Below the pieces are notes generated by a model. It made no database searches. It was not told the origin of the DNA and saw nothing but the letters and a program-made list of their open reading frames with translations. A DNA stretch of 64,000 bases from Podarcis liolepis. Lineage: Eukaryota. Position 1 is the stretch's first letter. Each line of letters begins with the position of its first letter. Of this stretch, positions 1 through 57,420 are shown one piece after another. The DNA lies in the NCBI GenBank assembly GCA_965112155.1, contig OZ218100.1; one strand, written 5' to 3'. The position numbers and the translations under genes were made by a program.

Positions 1-534
1 GTTCAGCTTTCGCGAAAAAAAGGCACACGGTCTCCACTCTGACTCCTCCTTCCCTGGCTGCAGAAGAAGCACCGCCCCTATGGCTCTGTCTGATGCGTCT
101 GTTTCGACTCTCATCTTTTTTTGTAAATCCACATGCAGAAGTTGTTCTTCAGAGGCGAAGGCCCTTTTTAGCTCCTCAAAAGCTCGCTCCACCTCCTCAG
201 TCCAAACAAATTTCTTCTTACTGCTGAGACAGTCCGTTATGGGCGCCGTCAGGTGGGCAAAGTTTCGGATGAACTTACGGTAAAAGTTCCCAAACCCTAG
301 GAACCTCTGCACATCCTTCTTTGTTTTGGGTGTTTTCCATTCCAGCACTGCCTGGACCTTGCCGGGATCCATGGCCAATCCCTTGTCTGACAGGCGGTAC
401 CCCAGGAACTCCACCTCCTTGGTATGAAACTGACACTTCTCCAGTTTCACCCACAGCCGGTTGGCTAGCAGCCTGCGCAACACTTCTCTGACGTCTCTCA
501 CATGCTGCTCCTCATTCTCAGAATACACCAACAC
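1..534 (-). pseudogene. pol: Gypsy Pol, RT C-terminal half and start of RNase H (frame after the lesion; open to window edge)
   Basis: Manual translation from 534: VLVYSENEEQHVRDVREVL...KLEKCQF...EFLGY...VQRFLGFGNFYRKFIRNFA...VETDASDRAIGAVL...CAFFSRKLN, with no stops. Confidence 0.95.
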
Positions 535-557
535 GTGTATTCTGTGTTCCTGTACAA

Positions 558-1670
558 CAGGAAGGCCACACAATTCTTGTAAAGCAAAGGCCCTAGTACG
601 TGGTTCATCAGCGATTGAAAGCACGCCGAGCCTGCTTGTAATCCAAATGGCATAACGAGATATTCAAATGCCCCCAAAGGGGTGAACATGGTGGTTTTCC
701 ATTCATCCCCTTTCCTTATACATATCAGATTGTACGCCCCCCTTAGGTCCAGCTTGGTAAAAATCTTTCCCTTCCGCACCCTGTCCAAAATGTCATCTAT
801 TCTAGGCATGGGAAAGGCCAATGGTTCTGACACTGCGTTTAAAGCCCGAAAGTCACACACAAGTCTCGGCTTGTCCGTGTTTTTTTTATCCACAAAAAAC
901 ACTGGACTACCTCCCACCGCTCTTGACTCTCTGATGAAACCCCTCTTCAGGTTCTTTTCAATGAACTCTCTTAGCTCCTGCATTTCTCTGTCTGACATGG
1001 CATACAACTTGCCTGCGGGGAGCTGCGCCCCAGGCAGTAAATTGATTTGACAATCAAAGGGTCTATGCGGGGGTAGTTGGTCAGCTTCCCTTTCGCTGAA
1101 CACGTCGCTGAGATCTGCGTATTGTCGTGGTACCTTCACCTTCTCCGTTACTTCTGTCCCTGCTAGGGTAGCTTGGGCTCCTGCTGAACCCTTTCCCTCC
1201 TTGCAGTGTTCTGAGCAATGTGCGGAACCAAAGGAAACCACTCTCTGATGCCAGCCCACCAGTGGATCATGTAACGCCAGCCAGCTCATCCCCAAAATAA
1301 TGGGAGCCCCTCCCAAGGTGGCCACATTAAACGCTATCAGTTCTGTGTGCCTTGCCACCTTCATTATCATTGGGACGGTCTGCAAGCTGACTTCCCCTCC
1401 CAACAGCTCCCTGCCATCGATCGTGGTCACCTGCAGGGGGTTGCTTAAAGGGATCGTCTGTATCTGGTGTTCAGCTGCAAACTCTTTGCTCATGAAATTG
1501 CAGGAGCTGCCTGAGTCCAACAGCGCCTTAATCTTCAGAGGGTATCCGTTTTGCAACTCTAGTGACACTTCTATCACTAGGGCAGGTTTGGGAGGTTCTG
1601 GCGTGGGCACTTTCACTGCTCTTTGGCCTGGCTGCTGTGCCCCGACGGTGGCAGCCAGGCGTTGGCTTTT
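558..1670 (-). pseudogene. pol: Gypsy Pol, aspartic protease and RT N-terminal half (-1 frame relative to gag)
   Basis: ORF 498..1616 contains LLDSGS (protease), ILGMSWL, RLVCDFRALN, FTKLDLRGAY and YLVMPFGL. Homology breaks at CVAFL, where DD is expected. Confidence 0.95.
1605..1670 (-). promoter_or_regulatory. Putative -1 ribosomal frameshift signal (A-run plus H-type pseudoknot)
   Basis: Stem 1 is 10 bp (1651-1660 with 1626-1635); stem 2 is 6 bp (1637-1642 with 1605-1610). Pol is in the -1 frame and open through the overlap. Confidence 0.75.
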
Positions 1671-2626
1671 ACTTGCTCCGATATCTCCTCCACTCCTCCC
1701 TCAACAGCTCCCACCATCCCTTGCCATTCCTTCCTCTGGGGGCAGACTCTGGCAAAGTGACCTGGCTGTTGGCAGAGATAGCATTTCCGGGCGCCTTTTC
1801 CCTCCTTCCTACCCCCTTCACTGGGCTTTGAAACTGCGCGCGCGCGCGCTGTTCCGATTTCCATCGGCTCTGCCGGCGGGAAAGCTGGCTCAGGAATGTC
1901 TGGAATGCGGAACTCCTTCCAACGTTCCCCCTTACCTTCCCGCCTCTCCAAGGCTCTCGCCTCCTGGCGCGCTCCTATGGTCAGCGCAGATTTGGTCAGC
2001 TGATCCATAGAAACCGCCCTGGGACTCCGGGAAAGTTCGTCTTTCACAGCCGAAGAAAGACCTTCTTCAAAAAGCATTTGAATGGGTTCCGCCGATAAAT
2101 CCCACCCCAATCTGTGAACCAGCATGGTAAACTCAGTCCAGTACTCACGGACAGATCGGCTCCCCTGCTTGCAAGCCATTAACTGTCTGCGCACCACTCC
2201 CTGCTCAATATCGCTGGAAAACATGAGATCCATTGCACGAAAGAACTTCATTGTGTCCTTTAGGACGTCATTATGCGTTGCCATCAGGGGTCGCACCCAG
2301 TCCCTCGCCCCCTTTTCAAGGTGCCCAATCACGAAAGCCACTCGCGATTCCTCGTCAGGGAATTCATCAAACTGCACATTGAGGGCATATTGCATCTCTG
2401 TTCTAAAGGCATGGTAGTCCTTGGGGTCCCCCCCAAACTTCTGCACCAATCCTGGTACCTTTCTGGTGAACTGGGTGGCTTTCCCCTTCTTGTCTGCATC
2501 CTGAGCCCTTCTCTCCTCAAGCCTCGCCGTCTGCAGCGCCAGTTGGATCTCCAACGCCCGGTACCTTTCTTCCAGGCTTGGCCCTGCTCCAACTCCTGCT
2601 TCTCCGGTTCTGGCTGGGTCACTCAT
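1613..2626 (-). CDS. gag: Gypsy Gag (capsid plus CCHC zinc knuckle), 337 aa, intact
   Basis: QGSRSVREY retrotransposon-gag motif, PEPMEIG motif, CYLCQQPGHFARVC knuckle, N-terminal coiled-coil-like segment. Confidence 0.95.
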   Translation of the reverse strand: MSDPARTGEAGVGAGPSLEERYRALEIQLALQTARLEERRAQDADKKGKATQFTRKVPGLVQKFGGDPKDYHAFRTEMQYALNVQFDEFPDEESRVAFVIGHLEKGARDWVRPLMATHNDVLKDTMKFFRAMDLMFSSDIEQGVVRRQLMACKQGSRSVREYWTEFTMLVHRLGWDLSAEPIQMLFEEGLSSAVKDELSRSPRAVSMDQLTKSALTIGARQEARALERREGKGERWKEFRIPDIPEPAFPPAEPMEIGTARARAVSKPSEGGRKEGKGARKCYLCQQPGHFARVCPQRKEWQGMVGAVEGGVEEISEQVKANAWLPPSGHSSQAKEQ

Positions 2627-2658
2627 GATGCTTTCTCCTGCACAAACAGCTTACAGAG

Positions 2659-2669
2659 ACTGTCGGAAT
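2659..2669 (-). promoter_or_regulatory. Primer-binding site, self-priming type
   Basis: ATTCCGACAGT lies 2 nt after the LTR end, has no TGG, and is the exact complement of ACTGTCGGAAT at 2800-2790 inside the LTR. Confidence 0.8.
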
Positions 2670-2671
2670 GC

Positions 2672-3079
2672 TGTGATGGGATGATGAGCTGCTTGTGCGT
2701 AAAAGCGTAGTCCCTCAGAGTCTGTGCAAGTTCACAAACCTCTGTCTGTGACGGAGCCCCTCAGACATGGCTCCTCTAGTCACTTGCAGATTCCGACAGT
2801 GGTTGTTTTCGGAATCGTTTCCAGCATAAAAGTTCCTTAACGGAAACACGTCTTCTGGACTCACGGCGTGACAGTTTCCGGCGAGGCGTGGGTCTCCCTA
2901 TGGGAACTTCAGATACCTCCCCACTGTTCTCGCTGGAAGTGTCTCTGAGCCCTCCCGCCTGCTCGCATTCCCTCAGAGATCCACTCCTCCCCCTGCTGGT
3001 TCCTGCTTCAGCTGTTGAGTCTCTCCCAGCCTCCCTGAGCCCCTCCACCACCTGTTCCTCTGATGGCAGTTCCCTGACA
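2672..3079 (-). repeat. 5' LTR (~408 bp)
   Basis: Minus strand reads TGTCAGGG...ATCACA; a TTTTAT TATA-like box lies ~26-31 nt upstream of the inferred start at 2800. The partner LTR is outside the window. Confidence 0.8.
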
Positions 3080-4970
3080 ATAGGGAAGGCCATTACTTCT
3101 CCCTCCCCCTCTCAGCTGCATGTTCTCTTTTCATATACTAGCCCCAACCCCATATTCCTGGGATTGCAGAGAACAAAATGGGTGGGGTGGCAGTTACCAG
3201 GCAACATTTGTGGCAGAAAGAGGTGCCTGCCCCTAACAAGTCTCCCCTGAATTTTATTCTCCCTGCCCCCAGAAACTGGATCATTTCTCCTCTGATTCAG
3301 TTTCAGCTCCCAGCTGGAAAAAAAAATTACCTCCTCATGGAGAATTGGGGAAGTAGTAAGCACTCCCTTGCTTCCTGTCAATTCTCCCCTCCCAGTACCC
3401 TAAAATCAAAGGCACTCCAATCATACTATCAATACCAGCTGATGATGCTCCATATGAAAAATGACAGATGTCCTTTCCTCTGCTTTCAGATGGCTGAATG
3501 GTTCAGCACACTCAGAGCTGGGGCCACTTTCTCAAGTACTGTGGGCTGTTTTACTCTCGAATCTGCATTTCAAGAGCCTTTTGGCTTTTGTCCCGTTTTC
3601 TTGCTTTGCTTCCTGGCTTAATTGCTTTTAATAAAGTGAATGGAAATATGACCCTTATCTTAGCGACTTGTCATACTCGATATTAGCAACTGCATCTTAT
3701 ACAGAAAGGGTTCAGAGAGTGATCTTCTGCAGAATGAGGTATGAGCTCAAATATATGCTGTTGGAGCAGGGCAGTAAATGAGGCGAAACCCCAATATTTG
3801 GCCCCTTTTGACAAGGTCAGATCTCAATGGTTTTCCGTAGTTTTAAACAAAATGCTGGCATGCCCATTTCTATAAAGGTTACCTTTCAGAATGACCAAGT
3901 TCTGTAGCATCTTTTTTAGAAATGTAGCTGACACAAAGGAGCTTCTTCTGATTCTATCTTAGTAGTTCATATGTCATGAAAGTTCATGTCCTTCCCATTC
4001 AAAACTGAGAACCTCAGGAGCTCTATCAAGTGAAAAGGCAATCTATTGCAGATACTTCACAGCAAGCTTCCGTCTCTCCACCCCGCTGAGCAATGTGCTA
4101 TTGAAAAGAGCTACATTCTGGGCTTCGTCTGCTTGACTTATCGTTCCAGCTGTTAATGAAGAAACCTTACTGTGTGAACCCACAAAAAATGTTATTAGAA
4201 GATATCCCAAGCTAGTCAAGCTCAGAGTATTTCCACTGAAATCCAGTAAATCCAATTATTTGTGTAGGTCTACTCTCAGCATGACTTTGCTGGACATCCT
4301 CCATTATTATTATTGATATGTATGTCGCTTTCCATAACAAATGAAGCCTCGAAGTGTTGTACAAAAGCACAATACAAAAATATAACGCTCAGCAAACACA
4401 GCTATCAACACAATACCAAACACTACAAGTGATCATCCATAATAGTCAATTATAGAACAGGGATATCCTTCTTAACCAACAGCAGGATGAATACCTAAAA
4501 TAGCCCCCAACCAGAACAGAATTATTGCCCAAATGACTAGGAGAATAAAAGGTAGGGAGGTAAGTGAGGGTAATTTTAGCACTTGACGGTTTTCAGTTGC
4601 TGGATGGCAATTTTGATTTCTTTCGTAGTAGTAATTGCGCTGTATCATGTGAGGATGTAGTTGTCTTACTATGATCCAATTAACTGCATACACATTTATT
4701 TGCACATTGGTATGCCTTCAGGATACAACCAGCCTGTGTGTGTGAACTATTGTAATAAAGAAGCCTAACAGCTCAAGCAAGCAAGATACAAAGGTCTATG
4801 AAACCCAGTATAAGGTTCATAGCATGAATGCAAGCAGACAAATTGACCTACATGGTAGAGACCATGTTGGGTGGATATCAGGTTACTTTGACCCAGGCTA
4901 TGCTGTTTTGCCCCTACCATGGTTTATTATAGGCTCATGAAAGAACGGAATCTAGCTTGAGTATTTTAAA

Positions 4971-5997: not shown

Positions 5998-6133
5998 CAG
6001 GCATAGGCAACCTTTGGCCCTCCAGATGTTTTGGCCTACAACTCCCATGATCCCTATCTAACAGGACCAGTGGTCAGAGATGATGGGAATTGTAGTGCAA
6101 AACATCTGGAGGGCTGAAGGTTGCCTGTGCCTG
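5998..6133. mobile_element. hAT-type palindromic MITE
   Basis: TIRs caggcataggcaacc/ggttgcctgtgcctg; 8-bp TSD ctttagga/ctttaggg. Related, more decayed copies near 22.3, 28.9, 33.4, 42.9, 44.4, 45.4, 46.3 and 53.5 kb. Confidence 0.88.
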
Positions 6134-12365: not shown

Positions 12366-12955
12366 CAGTGGTACATGGGTGGCGCTGTGGATTAAACCAC
12401 AGAGCCTAGGACTTGCCGATCAGAAGGTCGGCGGTTCGAATCCCCACAACGGGGTGAGCTCCCATAGCTTGGTCCCTGTTCCTACCAACCTAGCAGTTCA
12501 AAAGCACGTCAAAGTGCAAGTAGATAAATAGGTACCACTCTGGTGGGAAGGTAAACGGTGTTTCCGTGCGCTGCTCTGGTTCGCCAGAAGCGGCTTAGTC
12601 ATGCTGGCCACATAACCCGGAAGCTGTCTACGGACAAACGCTGGCTCCCTCGGCCAATAAAGTGAGATGAGCGCCGCAACCCCAGAGTCGACCACAACTG
12701 GACCTAATAGTCAGGGGTCCTTTTACCTTTACCTTTACCTCGGGTTAAGTACTTAATTCGTTCCAGAGGTCCATTCTTAACCAGCAACTGTTCTTAACCT
12801 GAAGCACCACTTTAGCTAATGGGGCCTGCTGCTGCCGCTGCGTCGCCGAAGCACCATTTCTGTTCTCATCCTGAAGCAAAGTTCTTAACCCAATGTACTA
12901 TTTCTGGGTTAGCAGAGTCTGTAACCTGAAGCGTATGTAACCCGAGGTATCACTG
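12366..12955. mobile_element. Tc1/mariner (Tigger-like) MITE with a Sauria SINE inserted in its left TIR
   Basis: TA+cagtggtac[SINE]ctcgggtta ... taacccgaggtatcactg; same TIR family as 51113-51333. Confidence 0.85.
12371..12739 (+). mobile_element. Sauria SINE
   Basis: gggtggcgctgtgg head, ggttcgaatccc B box, (ACCTTT)n tail. Confidence 0.95.
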
Positions 12956-18501: not shown

Positions 18502-18637
18502 CAGGCATCCCCAACCTGCGGCCCTCCAGATGTTTTGGCCTACAACTTCCATGATCCCTAGCTAACAGGGCCAGTGGTCAGGGATGGTGGGAATTGTAAT
18601 CCAAAACATCTGGAGGGCCGAAGGTTGGGGAAGACTG
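18502..18637. mobile_element. hAT-type palindromic MITE
   Basis: Same family as 5998-6133; perfect 8-bp TSD ctcttgct. Confidence 0.9.
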
Positions 18638-25156: not shown

Positions 25157-25513
25157 GGGATGCAGGTGGCGCTGTAGGTTAAAACACAGAGCCTAGGACT
25201 TGCTGATCAGAAGGTCAGCGGTTCGAATCCCCACGACGTGGTGAGCTCCTGTTCCTCGGTCCCTGCTCCTGCCAACCTAGCAGTTCGAAAGCACATCAAA
25301 GTGCAAGTAGATAAATAGGTACTGCTTCGGCGGGAAGGTAAACGGCGTTTCCATGTGCTGCTGTGGTTCGCCAGAAGCGGCTTAGTCATGCTGGCCACAT
25401 GACCCGGAAGCTGTACGCCGGCTCCCTCAGCCAGTAAAGCGAGATGAGCGCTGCAACCCCAGAGTCGGCCACGACTGGACCTAATGGTCAGGGGTCCCTT
25501 TACCTTTACCTTT
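25157..25513 (+). mobile_element. Sauria SINE inserted into a CR1 remnant (~24960-25535)
   Basis: Full-length Sauria sequence with (ACCTTT)n tail; CR1-like sequence on both sides. Confidence 0.95.
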
Positions 25514-26724
25514 AAGCTGGTAGCCACCATTGTTTCTTATGGGATTCATATATTACCATAACAGTGTGACAATAATTTTCCTTTCGTCCATTCCCATGAC
25601 AGTCCTAGCCATCAGGTGGTCTTCCTGTGGTAAGGGCTCATGTCTTTCACCCCAGCTATTCCATGACTCATTCAGAAGATACCCGGTGAGCACAGAATCA
25701 GACCACAGGGATGCAACCCACTCACCTATGCCATTGTAGCAACAAGTGGATTGAGCTTTAGCTTTGCGGTCCGAAAGTTAAGTCTATGGCCTTGAAGTAA
25801 ATTTTACAAACTTTGTGAAATAGCTCAGGCATTTAAAAGCCAACATCATCAAAGACTGCCTAGAATGAGCATCTACCAATCATATAAGAAAATAGTAGCA
25901 TGAAATGAACAGCCTATCAATCTAGGAACACTTCAGATTCGAAGAGGAAAAAGGACTGTAATGAATGCTTATGTGAAGCTGTCTTGAAAACATCGGTACC
26001 TGAAAGGGTGAGAATTAAGAAAAACTTTTATGAAAAGAGCTTGAATGACTAGTGCAATTTGATGTACTTGTTGGCATTATGTCATGACCGTGGCTGAAAC
26101 TACCAGATGTTTCATCAGTTTATTACAGTTTTTGAGTTTTCATACCTTTCTTAATAATTTTCCCTGTCTTCACAATCCATTTGACATTTCAAAATTCTCT
26201 CTAGCTACTTGCTCATTGACCTTCGATGAACTTGCTGAAATTATAGACAAAGTCGGGGCACAATATTACCTTACTCTGAGCTTCCATATTGGTCCCTAAA
26301 GCTCTCTCAGTGTTTTCAGTTTTTAAATATTTGCTCTGTCACAAATATTGGGCTATATTTGGGGGTAAAGCTTCAGAGATAAATACAAACTGTATCCCCT
26401 TGGTTTCCATACCAGCAGTTCAAGAAATATAAATATAAAGGAAATTACTATTACTCTCTCCCAGTTTTGAAGAGTTTGACATAGGAAGTTATACATAGCA
26501 AAGAAATGTTTATGATATATATGATATTTACTGTTGATGATACATCAGATAATAATTTTAAAATTATATCAGATAGGATAATGGGTTTTATTGGTATATA
26601 TTGATTATTGTCAGATAATTGATTATTGTCAGATTTAGAAGTTGTTTCTATTCTGTGCTTCCTTAAGATATTGTGATGTATTTGCTTAACTTTTTTTATG
26701 GATAACTAGGAACCATATTGCATA

Positions 26725-28669: not shown

Positions 28670-29580
28670 AGCCTTATCCAGACTTGCCTGTCTAACAACA
28701 TAATCTTAACCATGTATACCTATGAACTCAGTGGGGCTTACTTCCATGTAAATGAGGTTAGGATTGCAGCCTTAGACCCATGAATTAACTGGAGTTATTT
28801 CAGAGAAATATTTGATTCATTTCTATTCAAAGAGATCCTACGGCTCAGGTATGTCTAGATATGCAATCCTAAAAGTCCTGCTCTTAATCTGTGATCCTCA
28901 CAGATGTTGCTGGACTACAACTCCCCTAATTGCAAACCATTGGCAAAGCTAGCAGGTGATGAGAAGAACTGGACTCTAAACAACATCTGGAGTGTCAGAG
29001 GTTCATCCCTGTCCTAAATAGTGACAGAAGAGAATTTTTTCAGTCTGTATTGAAAGTGAATTCAATGTAATTTTTTGAATTCAGCTATTGGATCGCTGAA
29101 TTTTGTGATTTTGGTTGAAAAATTCTCCCAATTTTGTGATTTTCTCTTGCAAAGATGCATATTATTTCTGGTCAAAATGCATATTTTAATAAAGAAGTCC
29201 ATACAAAATGTGTAGAGGAAATTGCATGCAAAATATATACAAACTATGTATTGGGGGGGAGTGTATTTAAATGTGATTTTTTCATACAGTTTAAAAAATA
29301 ATAATAGACAAGAAGACAACATGGACTTATGAATGAATGCTTGAAAAGCTGACACAGAACAGAAATAACCACCCCTAGTACTAATTCCTGGGGTGTGATA
29401 TGGTTTCTGCCTTTAGCTACTCAGTGGTCATGGAAAGATCCTTCCACTTGCTCAGGGACCCCTTAATCCAGGATAAACCACATCATTCAGCAGGTAGATA
29501 GGTAGCCGTGTTGGTCTGCCATAGTCAAAATAAAAAATTCCTTCCAGTAGCACCTTAAAGACCAACTAAGTTAGTTCTTG

Positions 29581-29618
29581 GTATGAGCTTTCGTGTGCAT
29601 GCACACTTCTTCAGATAC
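29581..29618 (-). ncRNA. Minimal type I hammerhead ribozyme (inverted copy)
   Basis: Reverse complement of 29622-29659. Confidence 0.8.
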
Positions 29619-29621
29619 AGT

Positions 29622-29659
29622 GTATCTGAAGAAGTGTGCATGCACACGAAAGCTCATAC
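29622..29659 (+). ncRNA. Minimal type I hammerhead ribozyme
   Basis: gtat-CTGAAGA-a-gtgtg(catg)cacac-GAAA-gc-TC^atac: core boxes, stem I gtat/atac, stem II, and a vestigial palindromic (AGCT) stem III. Confidence 0.8.
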
Positions 29660-30681
29660 CAAGAACTAACTTAGTTGGTCTTTAAGGTGCTACTGGAAGG
29701 AATTTTTTATTTTGATCATTCAGCAGGGTTAACTTAAGTGACCTACTTCAGATGCTACTATGGGTAGGTGGGGAAATAGATGAATGGCAGGAACTGGGTT
29801 CTGAATGAGGCAGCAAGTTTTTCAAAGTAAGTAAGAGGGAGGCACCATTTGGACTTCATTTCAGACAGCAAAATGTATTGAGCCAACACTGTATTCTTAC
29901 ATCATAGGCTACAGGGTTAAGCCCCAGTATGGAAACTAGATACCAGGGCTGATCCCTTTTGAGCTCAGGCACAGACTAAATCCTGCTTCTCAGTAAAATA
30001 CATTTAGGATCCATCTGCCAGCAAGTTGTGTAAACCGGCAATTAAAATTCACAGTGAACCTTCAGCTCTTCCAAAGTAAATAAACTCTCCACTCCAGTAG
30101 AAAGTAATGATAGCTAAAATTGTTGAAGAACTAGGATGACACCTATGATTAAGGCACAGACAAGTTGCATAATTATACAGATCAATGACTGTAAATTATT
30201 ATTTCAAAGATTGGCTTTGAAAAACACTCGTTTTGCAGCACAATAATCACCGTCTAATCTCAAATGCTGAGGCCTCTGTGCCATGTAAAGGAGTGGGTTG
30301 TTGTTGGCATTCCTTTCAAAGTTCTCTTCTTTCTTTTTCTCCCTCTCTCTCTCTTTCATGCCAGTATATTAAGATTACTGAACAGGCTGCCTCTGAATTT
30401 TGAGGCTTGCCTCAGATAGATTGTGGCGCCATTCAAAGTGAAAAGGTAAGTGATTTATGAAGGCATGAGACCTCAATTCAAAAACAGCACCACATACCCT
30501 TTAAATCCTAATCAAACTGCAATCCAGATCAGTGGTGCAACTAGAAGCAGACAGGTGCACTTCCTGAAGCATCTGCTAAGAAAATGGCTCCAGGTTACCC
30601 AAGCAAGACATACTCCTGCTCCTTTGATATATTTCTCCTTGCACCATGCTGGCAATAATTCAGATTTATCTGAACAAGAGA

Positions 30682-56862: not shown

Positions 56863-57293
56863 CAAAATGAAGGACAGGGAGGGCTATGTGAGTGTGCATA
56901 GGTAATAACCACTATACAAAGATAAAATCCAGCTTCATTGCTGTGCTCTCTTTTGCCTTTGATCCCACCCACCACTGTCATGTGACCCCCTAAAATGTTG
57001 CCCAGAAGGAGATGTGGCCCTCAGCAGACCAAAAAATGTTCCCCATCCCTGCCCTGGCTGATAGGGGACAACTGAGCACCAGCACGTATGTAATACTGCG
57101 TAATAAATAAATGTGCATTAACTCTGATATGTTTTCATATAGTGCAAAACCTCTGAAGCACAGAGGTAATGCTTTTCCACCCAATATTCCACCCAGAACA
57201 TATTATGTCCCCTGAGGTATCTGTGCTGTAAAATAAAGCTGTGAAACTAAAGATCTGTTGCTTCCAGGCATCAAAGTGAACTGCTTTCTAAAG

Positions 57294-57420
57294 TGTATCT
57301 GAAGAAGTGTGCATGCACACGAAAGCTCATACCAAGAACTAACTTAGTTGGTCTTTAAGGTGCTACTGGAAGGAATTTTTTATTTTGACTATGGCAGACC
57401 AACACGGCTACCTATCTACT
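57294..57420 (+). mobile_element. Penelope-like terminal-repeat monomer with hammerhead
   Basis: Identical over 125 bp to the reverse complement of 29495-29619; perfect 14-bp TSD actgctttctaaag (57280-57293, 57421-57434). Confidence 0.88.
57295..57332 (+). ncRNA. Minimal type I hammerhead ribozyme
   Basis: CTGAAGA at 57299-57305, GAAA at 57321-57324, predicted cut after C57328. Confidence 0.8.

Follow-up and report, generated by a model that had tools for sequence, protein, structure and literature searches.

Anatomy and age of the element

The window analyzed here is a stretch of 64,000 nucleotides from the lizard Podarcis liolepis (G000:C3:64356001-64420000). It holds the 5' end of a chromodomain Ty3/gypsy element of 5,483 bp that lies on the minus strand, as do all the features of the element described below. 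The 5' LTR (2672..3079; 408 bp, TG...CA) has its outer boundary at 3079, where the matches of 40 other places begin at or near the same position. Its inner end at 2672 is backed by the 3' LTR on the same contig, which differs from the 5' LTR at two of 408 positions, and by a 5-bp target-site duplication, CCTAT (3080..3084), with the identical five bases found after the 3' LTR. A purine tract adjoins the 3' LTR. Twelve poly(A)-signal hexamers were sought on the sense strand of the LTR (3079-2672) and none was present.

Gag (1613..2626) is an open frame of 337 amino acids with a Retrotrans_gag domain and a CCHC zinc knuckle, and it gave a weak match (E 1e-4) to the PEG10 capsid structure 7LGA. 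Pol was found in two pieces, the first (498..1700), which is shifted into the -1 frame with respect to gag, containing the protease and the start of the reverse transcriptase (RT), and the second (1..663) containing, according to its domain matches, the end of RT and RNase H. The integrase, SH3_Tf2-1 and chromodomain of the element sit past the window edge, the chromodomain (PF00385, E 7e-12) being located after the integrase. The order gag, protease, RT, RNase H and integrase that characterizes gypsy elements is therefore present between LTRs with a target duplication, and the element is a chromovirus (Ty3/gypsy) because integrase, SH3_Tf2-1 and a chromodomain follow RNase H. A chromodomain was also found in two of the three other families scanned. 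Gag and pol overlap at 1700-1613 (minus strand, -1 frame), where a 10-bp hairpin (1660-1651/1635-1626) occurs six bases past GTAAAA; we did not find a canonical X XXY YYZ slippery heptamer in this overlap, and its frameshift signal may be atypical.

The family is young and was recently active. Among 63 elements with both LTRs, obtained from 70 whole-element regions after removal of seven without a usable second LTR, the median LTR-LTR difference is 1 and 16 of the 63 show no difference at all. A frame of at least 1300 amino acids is intact in 21 of 71 whole-element regions, these having been chosen as best matches, and about 1,340 LTRs match the family pattern genome-wide. The original prediction of a young amniote element is thus correct for the family, but the pol of the window copy itself is broken and split over three frames. 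A homologue search with gag returned six proteins, the named ones coming only from Zootoca and Podarcis, and no named reference element was among these six. A large share of the chromovirus matches, near-identical groups included, falls on a 40-Mb contig (G000:C20) which may represent a sex-limited chromosome with duplicated segments.

Three other repeats were observed in the window. A perfect 95-bp inverted repeat (29525-29715), with a partial copy 27 kb away (57289-57419) that is 98-99% identical, is probably a young non-autonomous DNA transposon. An interspersed palindromic family of about 135 bp occurs at 5998-6133 and 18502-18637, and an interspersed family ending in (TTTACC)n, which we take to be SINE-like, occurs at 12378-12737 and 25165-25514.

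Predicted primer and primer-binding site of the window copy

The primer-binding site (PBS; 2659..2669), which reads ATTCCGACAGT from 2669 to 2659 on the minus strand, is the perfect complement of the predicted self-primer (2790..2800), which reads ACTGTCGGAAT from 2800 to 2790 and would form the first 11 nt of the RNA. The 11-nt complement of the original prediction is therefore confirmed at both places, and the pairing is a perfect 11 bp with a mismatch past each end. A 2-nt spacer, GC (2670..2671), separates the LTR end from the PBS, which accordingly occupies positions +3 to +13 from the LTR end, and a 2-nt spacer was seen in all five families described below. The PBS is not of the tRNA type; as had been noted for the region past the LTR end, the TGG of such a site is absent, in our count from the whole interval between 2822 and 2600.

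The 11-bp stem alone is only moderately unusual and proves little. When the 211-nt region was shuffled 5000 times with its dinucleotides preserved, 29 of the shuffles contained some perfect 11-bp stem. Of 289 tiles of that size taken from other parts of the window, 7 also have one, and the case therefore rests on position and covariation. The RNA folded from 2800 is mildly stable (z = -1.87). The nested minimum-energy fold omits the primer/PBS duplex, which is expected because this pair crosses, and in the centroid fold the PBS lies in the loop that the U5-leader stem closes.

Covariation across copies and families

Of fifty 5' copies, 30, 7 and 6 belong to three types in which primer and PBS match, and the other seven each have one unmatched change. 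In the set of 63 elements, all 11 positions pair fully in 49, one G-U pair occurs in seven and one mismatch in seven. Other families were located through Pfam searches, where 13 of the 20 regions fetched gave a clean LTR pair and seven were left out; L061 and L062, both kept, share flanks and represent one insertion. Each of the five families has its own, different 10-11-mer that is complementary to its own LTR and lies 2 nt past the LTR end, and the RT/RNase H identity of these families to the window copy is 50-80%. A perfect match of 10-11 nt between the PBS and the element's own LTR was observed in 11 of the 14 elements examined, the window element included.

An alignment of 84 distinct 5' sequences from three families, enriched for base-11 variants that were fetched deliberately, has the primer/PBS duplex 97.5% paired with two-sided changes at five of the 11 pairs, while the next outward pair is formed in none of the 84. 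The aligned rows are related and not independent, and the counts are descriptive and give no probabilities. The covariation of the two 11-mers that had been proposed as a check was thus observed on two levels, as two-sided changes within the family and as different 10-11-mers in the five families. Complementarity of the PBS to the element's own LTR, over 9-11 nt in the Tf1/sushi group, is thus kept here despite sequence change, and position and covariation together carry the case that the primer/PBS match is real.

One distant and very young chromodomain family (L078, L239-L283) has a 10-nt primer and, about 31 nt upstream of it, a clear GATAAAA box. In this family the U5-leader stem is replaced by a 12-bp stem that joins early R to the LTR end, while some of the copies have one long frame and others a gag of their own.

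Other RNA structures and the promoter box

The 12-bp U5-leader stem (2698-2687/2651-2640, with one G-U pair) is formed by a U5 arm (2687..2698) and a leader arm (2640..2651). As predicted, this stem was found in the window copy, and it covaries across the sister families: 92% of the aligned cells are paired with two-sided changes at three of the 12 pairs, and pairing in the sister families amounts to 93-100%. The stem corresponds to the Tf1-type duplex that the LTR forms with sequence located downstream of the PBS.

The nested complements that had been described in R are all present, with TGCAAGT/ACTTGCA at 2788-2782/2731-2725, GTGAC/GTCAC at 2783-2779/2752-2748 and GGAGCC/GGCTCC at 2774-2769/2758-2753, but two of the three break across copies. 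Over the 84 distinct 5' sequences, pairing amounts to 65% for UGCAAGU/ACUUGCA and 58% for GGAGCC/GGCUCC, and both were rejected as conserved stems. GUGAC/GUCAC is 92% paired overall and is uninformative, being nearly invariant and only 34% paired in the sister families. The alignment fold contains an R/U5 hairpin (2717..2741; 2741-2734 with 2725-2717) that is more conserved than the nested stems within the family and is only 61% paired in the sister families, which keep just two duplexes, the primer/PBS duplex and the U5-leader stem. For a U5-IR-like duplex directly upstream of the PBS, we did not find any ungapped helix of at least 5 bp with 90% pairing that uses 2686-2670, a search that does not extend to shorter or bulged helices.

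A TTTTAT box (2826..2831) is present 26-31 nt upstream of the primer start at 2800, in agreement with the original prediction, but it is kept in only 29 of 104 5' copies, the commonest variant being CTCCTTTG. It was rejected as a conserved TATA box and constitutes weak promoter evidence. Four raw RNA runs were compared with the 5' ends of two copies, the window copy and a copy of the commonest subfamily; each run yielded 39-107 reads, most of them diverged and extending into the flanks. These reads show no start or end peaks, their coverage being too sparse and too diverged to inform the start site. The description of the RNA structure as complete is therefore overstated, as two nested stems break, no third Tf1-type duplex was found and the box is poorly kept.

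A substitution hotspot at base 11 of the predicted primer

Exact genome-wide pattern counts of LTRs were obtained for positions in and next to the predicted primer. Among LTRs with the common bases, 1296 have T at base 11 (2790..2790) and 46 have A, C or G. With bases 3, 5, 11 and 13 freed the count is 1346 LTRs, so that bases 3, 5 and 13 together add 4, and with seven further positions freed it is 1304, so that those seven together add 8. Base 11 is thus a hotspot with 46 variant LTRs versus 12 over ten neighbouring control positions, the control counts being totals by subtraction and not per-position values. The sample of 61 elements, two more having been dropped from the 63, is too small to single out base 11, which ties there with five other sites at two rare variants each.

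The 46 variant LTRs belong to 27 elements, consisting of 19 pairs with the identical base in both LTRs and eight singles, for which a search of about 10 kb did not reveal a partner LTR that includes base 11. By element, the changes are to A in 15, to G in seven and to C in five. The PBS is unaltered in 22 of 23 base-11 variant elements. The exception is L237 (G000:C18, near 6683016), where both LTRs have A at base 11 and the PBS begins with the T that pairs with it; this single case is probably a second-generation copy whose PBS was rewritten from the primer. Among 47 elements of the most distant family none varies at the last primer base, a comparison of low power in which a count of zero has a chance of about 0.15-0.2 at the same rate.

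It is conceivable, but in our assessment unlikely, that the element does prime itself and that the excess at base 11 merely reflects a dispensable last pair together with a few mutated source copies that spread. Some variant copies do have a common U3 background and base, and copies descended from a source mutated in its 3' LTR only would have the variant in both LTRs while their PBS stayed unaltered. Should the variants go back to just three events that recombination then spread, the excess would lose significance (P 0.15). On the other hand, the variants form 11 combinations of U3 background and base, with all three bases found on each of two U3 backgrounds, and for ten independent events versus the 12 control variants P is about 1e-5. 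Bases 12 and 13, which are outside the duplex, show no excess like that of base 11, and the same base-11 change was found in both LTRs of one element of a sister family. What the hotspot at base 11 suggests is a likely cut of the element's own RNA at this base, from which copying would begin.

Proposed mechanism and alternative explanations

Self-priming with the RNA cut between bases 11 and 12, as in Tf1, is the reading that we hold with high confidence. Transcription would start at 2800, and the loop of the U5-leader stem would keep the PBS open for bases 1-11, which would pair with it and would then be cut off, the predicted RNase H cut falling between bases 11 and 12 (2790/2789). Synthesis of minus-strand DNA would run from 2670 as far as 2789, the new end of the template, where RT may at times add an untemplated base. 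After strand transfer this base would stand opposite base 11 and be copied into both LTRs. A change present in both LTRs is one made during or before reverse transcription. A base appended to the minus-strand strong-stop DNA where it ends would, once transferred, replace the base just upstream of the template 5' end, and the hotspot would therefore put that end at 2789. Plus-strand synthesis could copy the primer back into the PBS, as a result of which the two 11-mers would stay matched.

Addition of untemplated bases at template ends is known for reverse transcriptases and is described as strong for Tf1 RT (PMC3185545, PMC3035444). For MMLV RT, PMC6885630 reports that capped ends favour +C and that uncapped ends give a mixture in which +A, +C and +G are listed. 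The mixture of added bases in the lizard family would fit an uncapped template end. Against this, the commonest change, T to A in 15 of the 27 elements, implies an added dT, unlike the +A, +C and +G listed there. An added dA would be invisible, as it would restore T, and such additions may also be the reason for the T at base 11 in four of the five families.

A template end at 2789 would yield the same hotspot if the RNA started there with a cap, the 11-mer being the end of U3 and the primer coming from the 3' repeat copy or from another molecule. The weak promoter box and the lack of a start peak among the sparse reads of the RNA runs are compatible with such a start. Pol II usually starts at a pyrimidine-purine step, however, and 2800 is an A after C whereas 2789 is a C. 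A capped start at 2789 also leaves unexplained why the end of the duplex coincides exactly with the hotspot and why one PBS has the matching change. The added C that a cap favours (PMC6885630) would moreover be read as G, which accounts for only seven of the 27 elements. We consider this explanation improbable.

Priming at the PBS by a host tRNA, a tRNA fragment or another small RNA, with the LTR match being secondary, is very unlikely. A partial host set from an Rfam search and cluster fetches comprised 56 different tRNA-like sequences that represent 25 anticodon classes, and the test covered tRNA only. The three PBS types of the family gave a best match of 6-7 nt to these sequences and none at a CCA end. 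The tRNA search that had been suggested thus yielded a complementarity of at most 7 nt, and of 0 nt at the CCA ends, and the PBS lacks complementarity to tRNA 3' ends of the 25 anticodon classes, as in the Tf1/sushi group. In addition to the missing TGG, five unrelated PBS sequences match their own LTRs and changes in the PBS track those in the LTR.

Equally remote is a chance complement, or a fold serving translation or packaging rather than priming, which the stems in 7 of 289 window tiles and the overall folding z of only -1.87 would allow, but which is largely refuted by the fixed position 2 nt past the LTR end in five families, the sharp length of 10-11 bp and the two-sided changes, there being no other candidate PBS.

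Self-priming with a cut after base 11 therefore remains our preferred reading. We further regard it as likely, with somewhat less assurance, that the genome records self-priming in an amniote, in which base-11 errors of RT map the cut to the Tf1 position and one copy has rewritten its PBS.

Comparison with known systems and significance

Self-priming has been shown experimentally for Tf1 and Tf2 of Schizosaccharomyces pombe (PMC7175516, PMC10085805). In Tf1 the cut in the RNA separates base 11 from base 12 (PMC7175516), and three duplexes are needed (PMC10085805). The lizard element resembles Tf1 and Tf2 in being a chromodomain Ty3/gypsy element with an 11-nt PBS just past the 5' LTR that is complementary to 11 nt of the LTR, in the flanking duplex between the LTR and the sequence past the PBS, and in the predicted cut between bases 11 and 12. 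It differs in that two conserved duplexes were found as opposed to the three of Tf1. Tf1 is described as having a single ORF and no CCHC motif (PMC10085805), while the lizard element has a CCHC Gag with pol in the -1 frame. The primer of the lizard element lies 129 nt upstream of the LTR end, and here both the cut and the start are predicted.

The self-priming, three-duplex structure is presented as common to the Tf1/sushi group in fungi and vertebrates (PMC10085805, PMC6317226, PMC4600332, PMC3601003). For the vertebrate members it had already been predicted by Butler et al. 2001, as cited in PMC10085805, PMC6317226 and PMC4600332. The lizard family shares with these vertebrate elements (sushi-ichi, V-clade chromoviruses) a vertebrate host, a chromodomain, a CCHC Gag, a predicted -1 frameshift, an LTR end in ACA and a predicted self-priming 'pretzel'. 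The vertebrate elements have fish or frog hosts whereas the host here is a lizard, and the lizard family adds copy-level covariation and a base-11 footprint from past replication rounds. Membership in the Tf1/sushi clade is likely, judged by mechanism and chromovirus features. Gypsy elements are reported as abundant in the anole lizard (PMC11011659). Self-priming in a lizard or a base-11 footprint was not found in the literature searched, subscription papers and supplements aside, and Butler et al. 2001 may have included reptile elements already.

Strand-transfer errors at the U3/R junction of MLV were reportedly described by Kulpa et al. 1997. These are similar to the changes observed here, as in both cases a substitution just upstream of the template 5' end would be fixed in the first strand transfer. 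The template end in MLV is, however, the capped RNA start, whereas in the lizard element the affected position is the last base of the predicted primer and the changes are a mix of A, C and G.

Self-priming itself is known from Tf1, and the lizard family provides evidence from real replication rounds for use of the Tf1 cut position in an amniote. These elements are relatives of the ancestors of PEG10-type genes. The footprint offers a cheap, genome-only test for other lineages in which self-priming has been proposed and makes the vertebrate prediction testable. If true, it could be used to map the template ends of any multicopy LTR family from assemblies alone.
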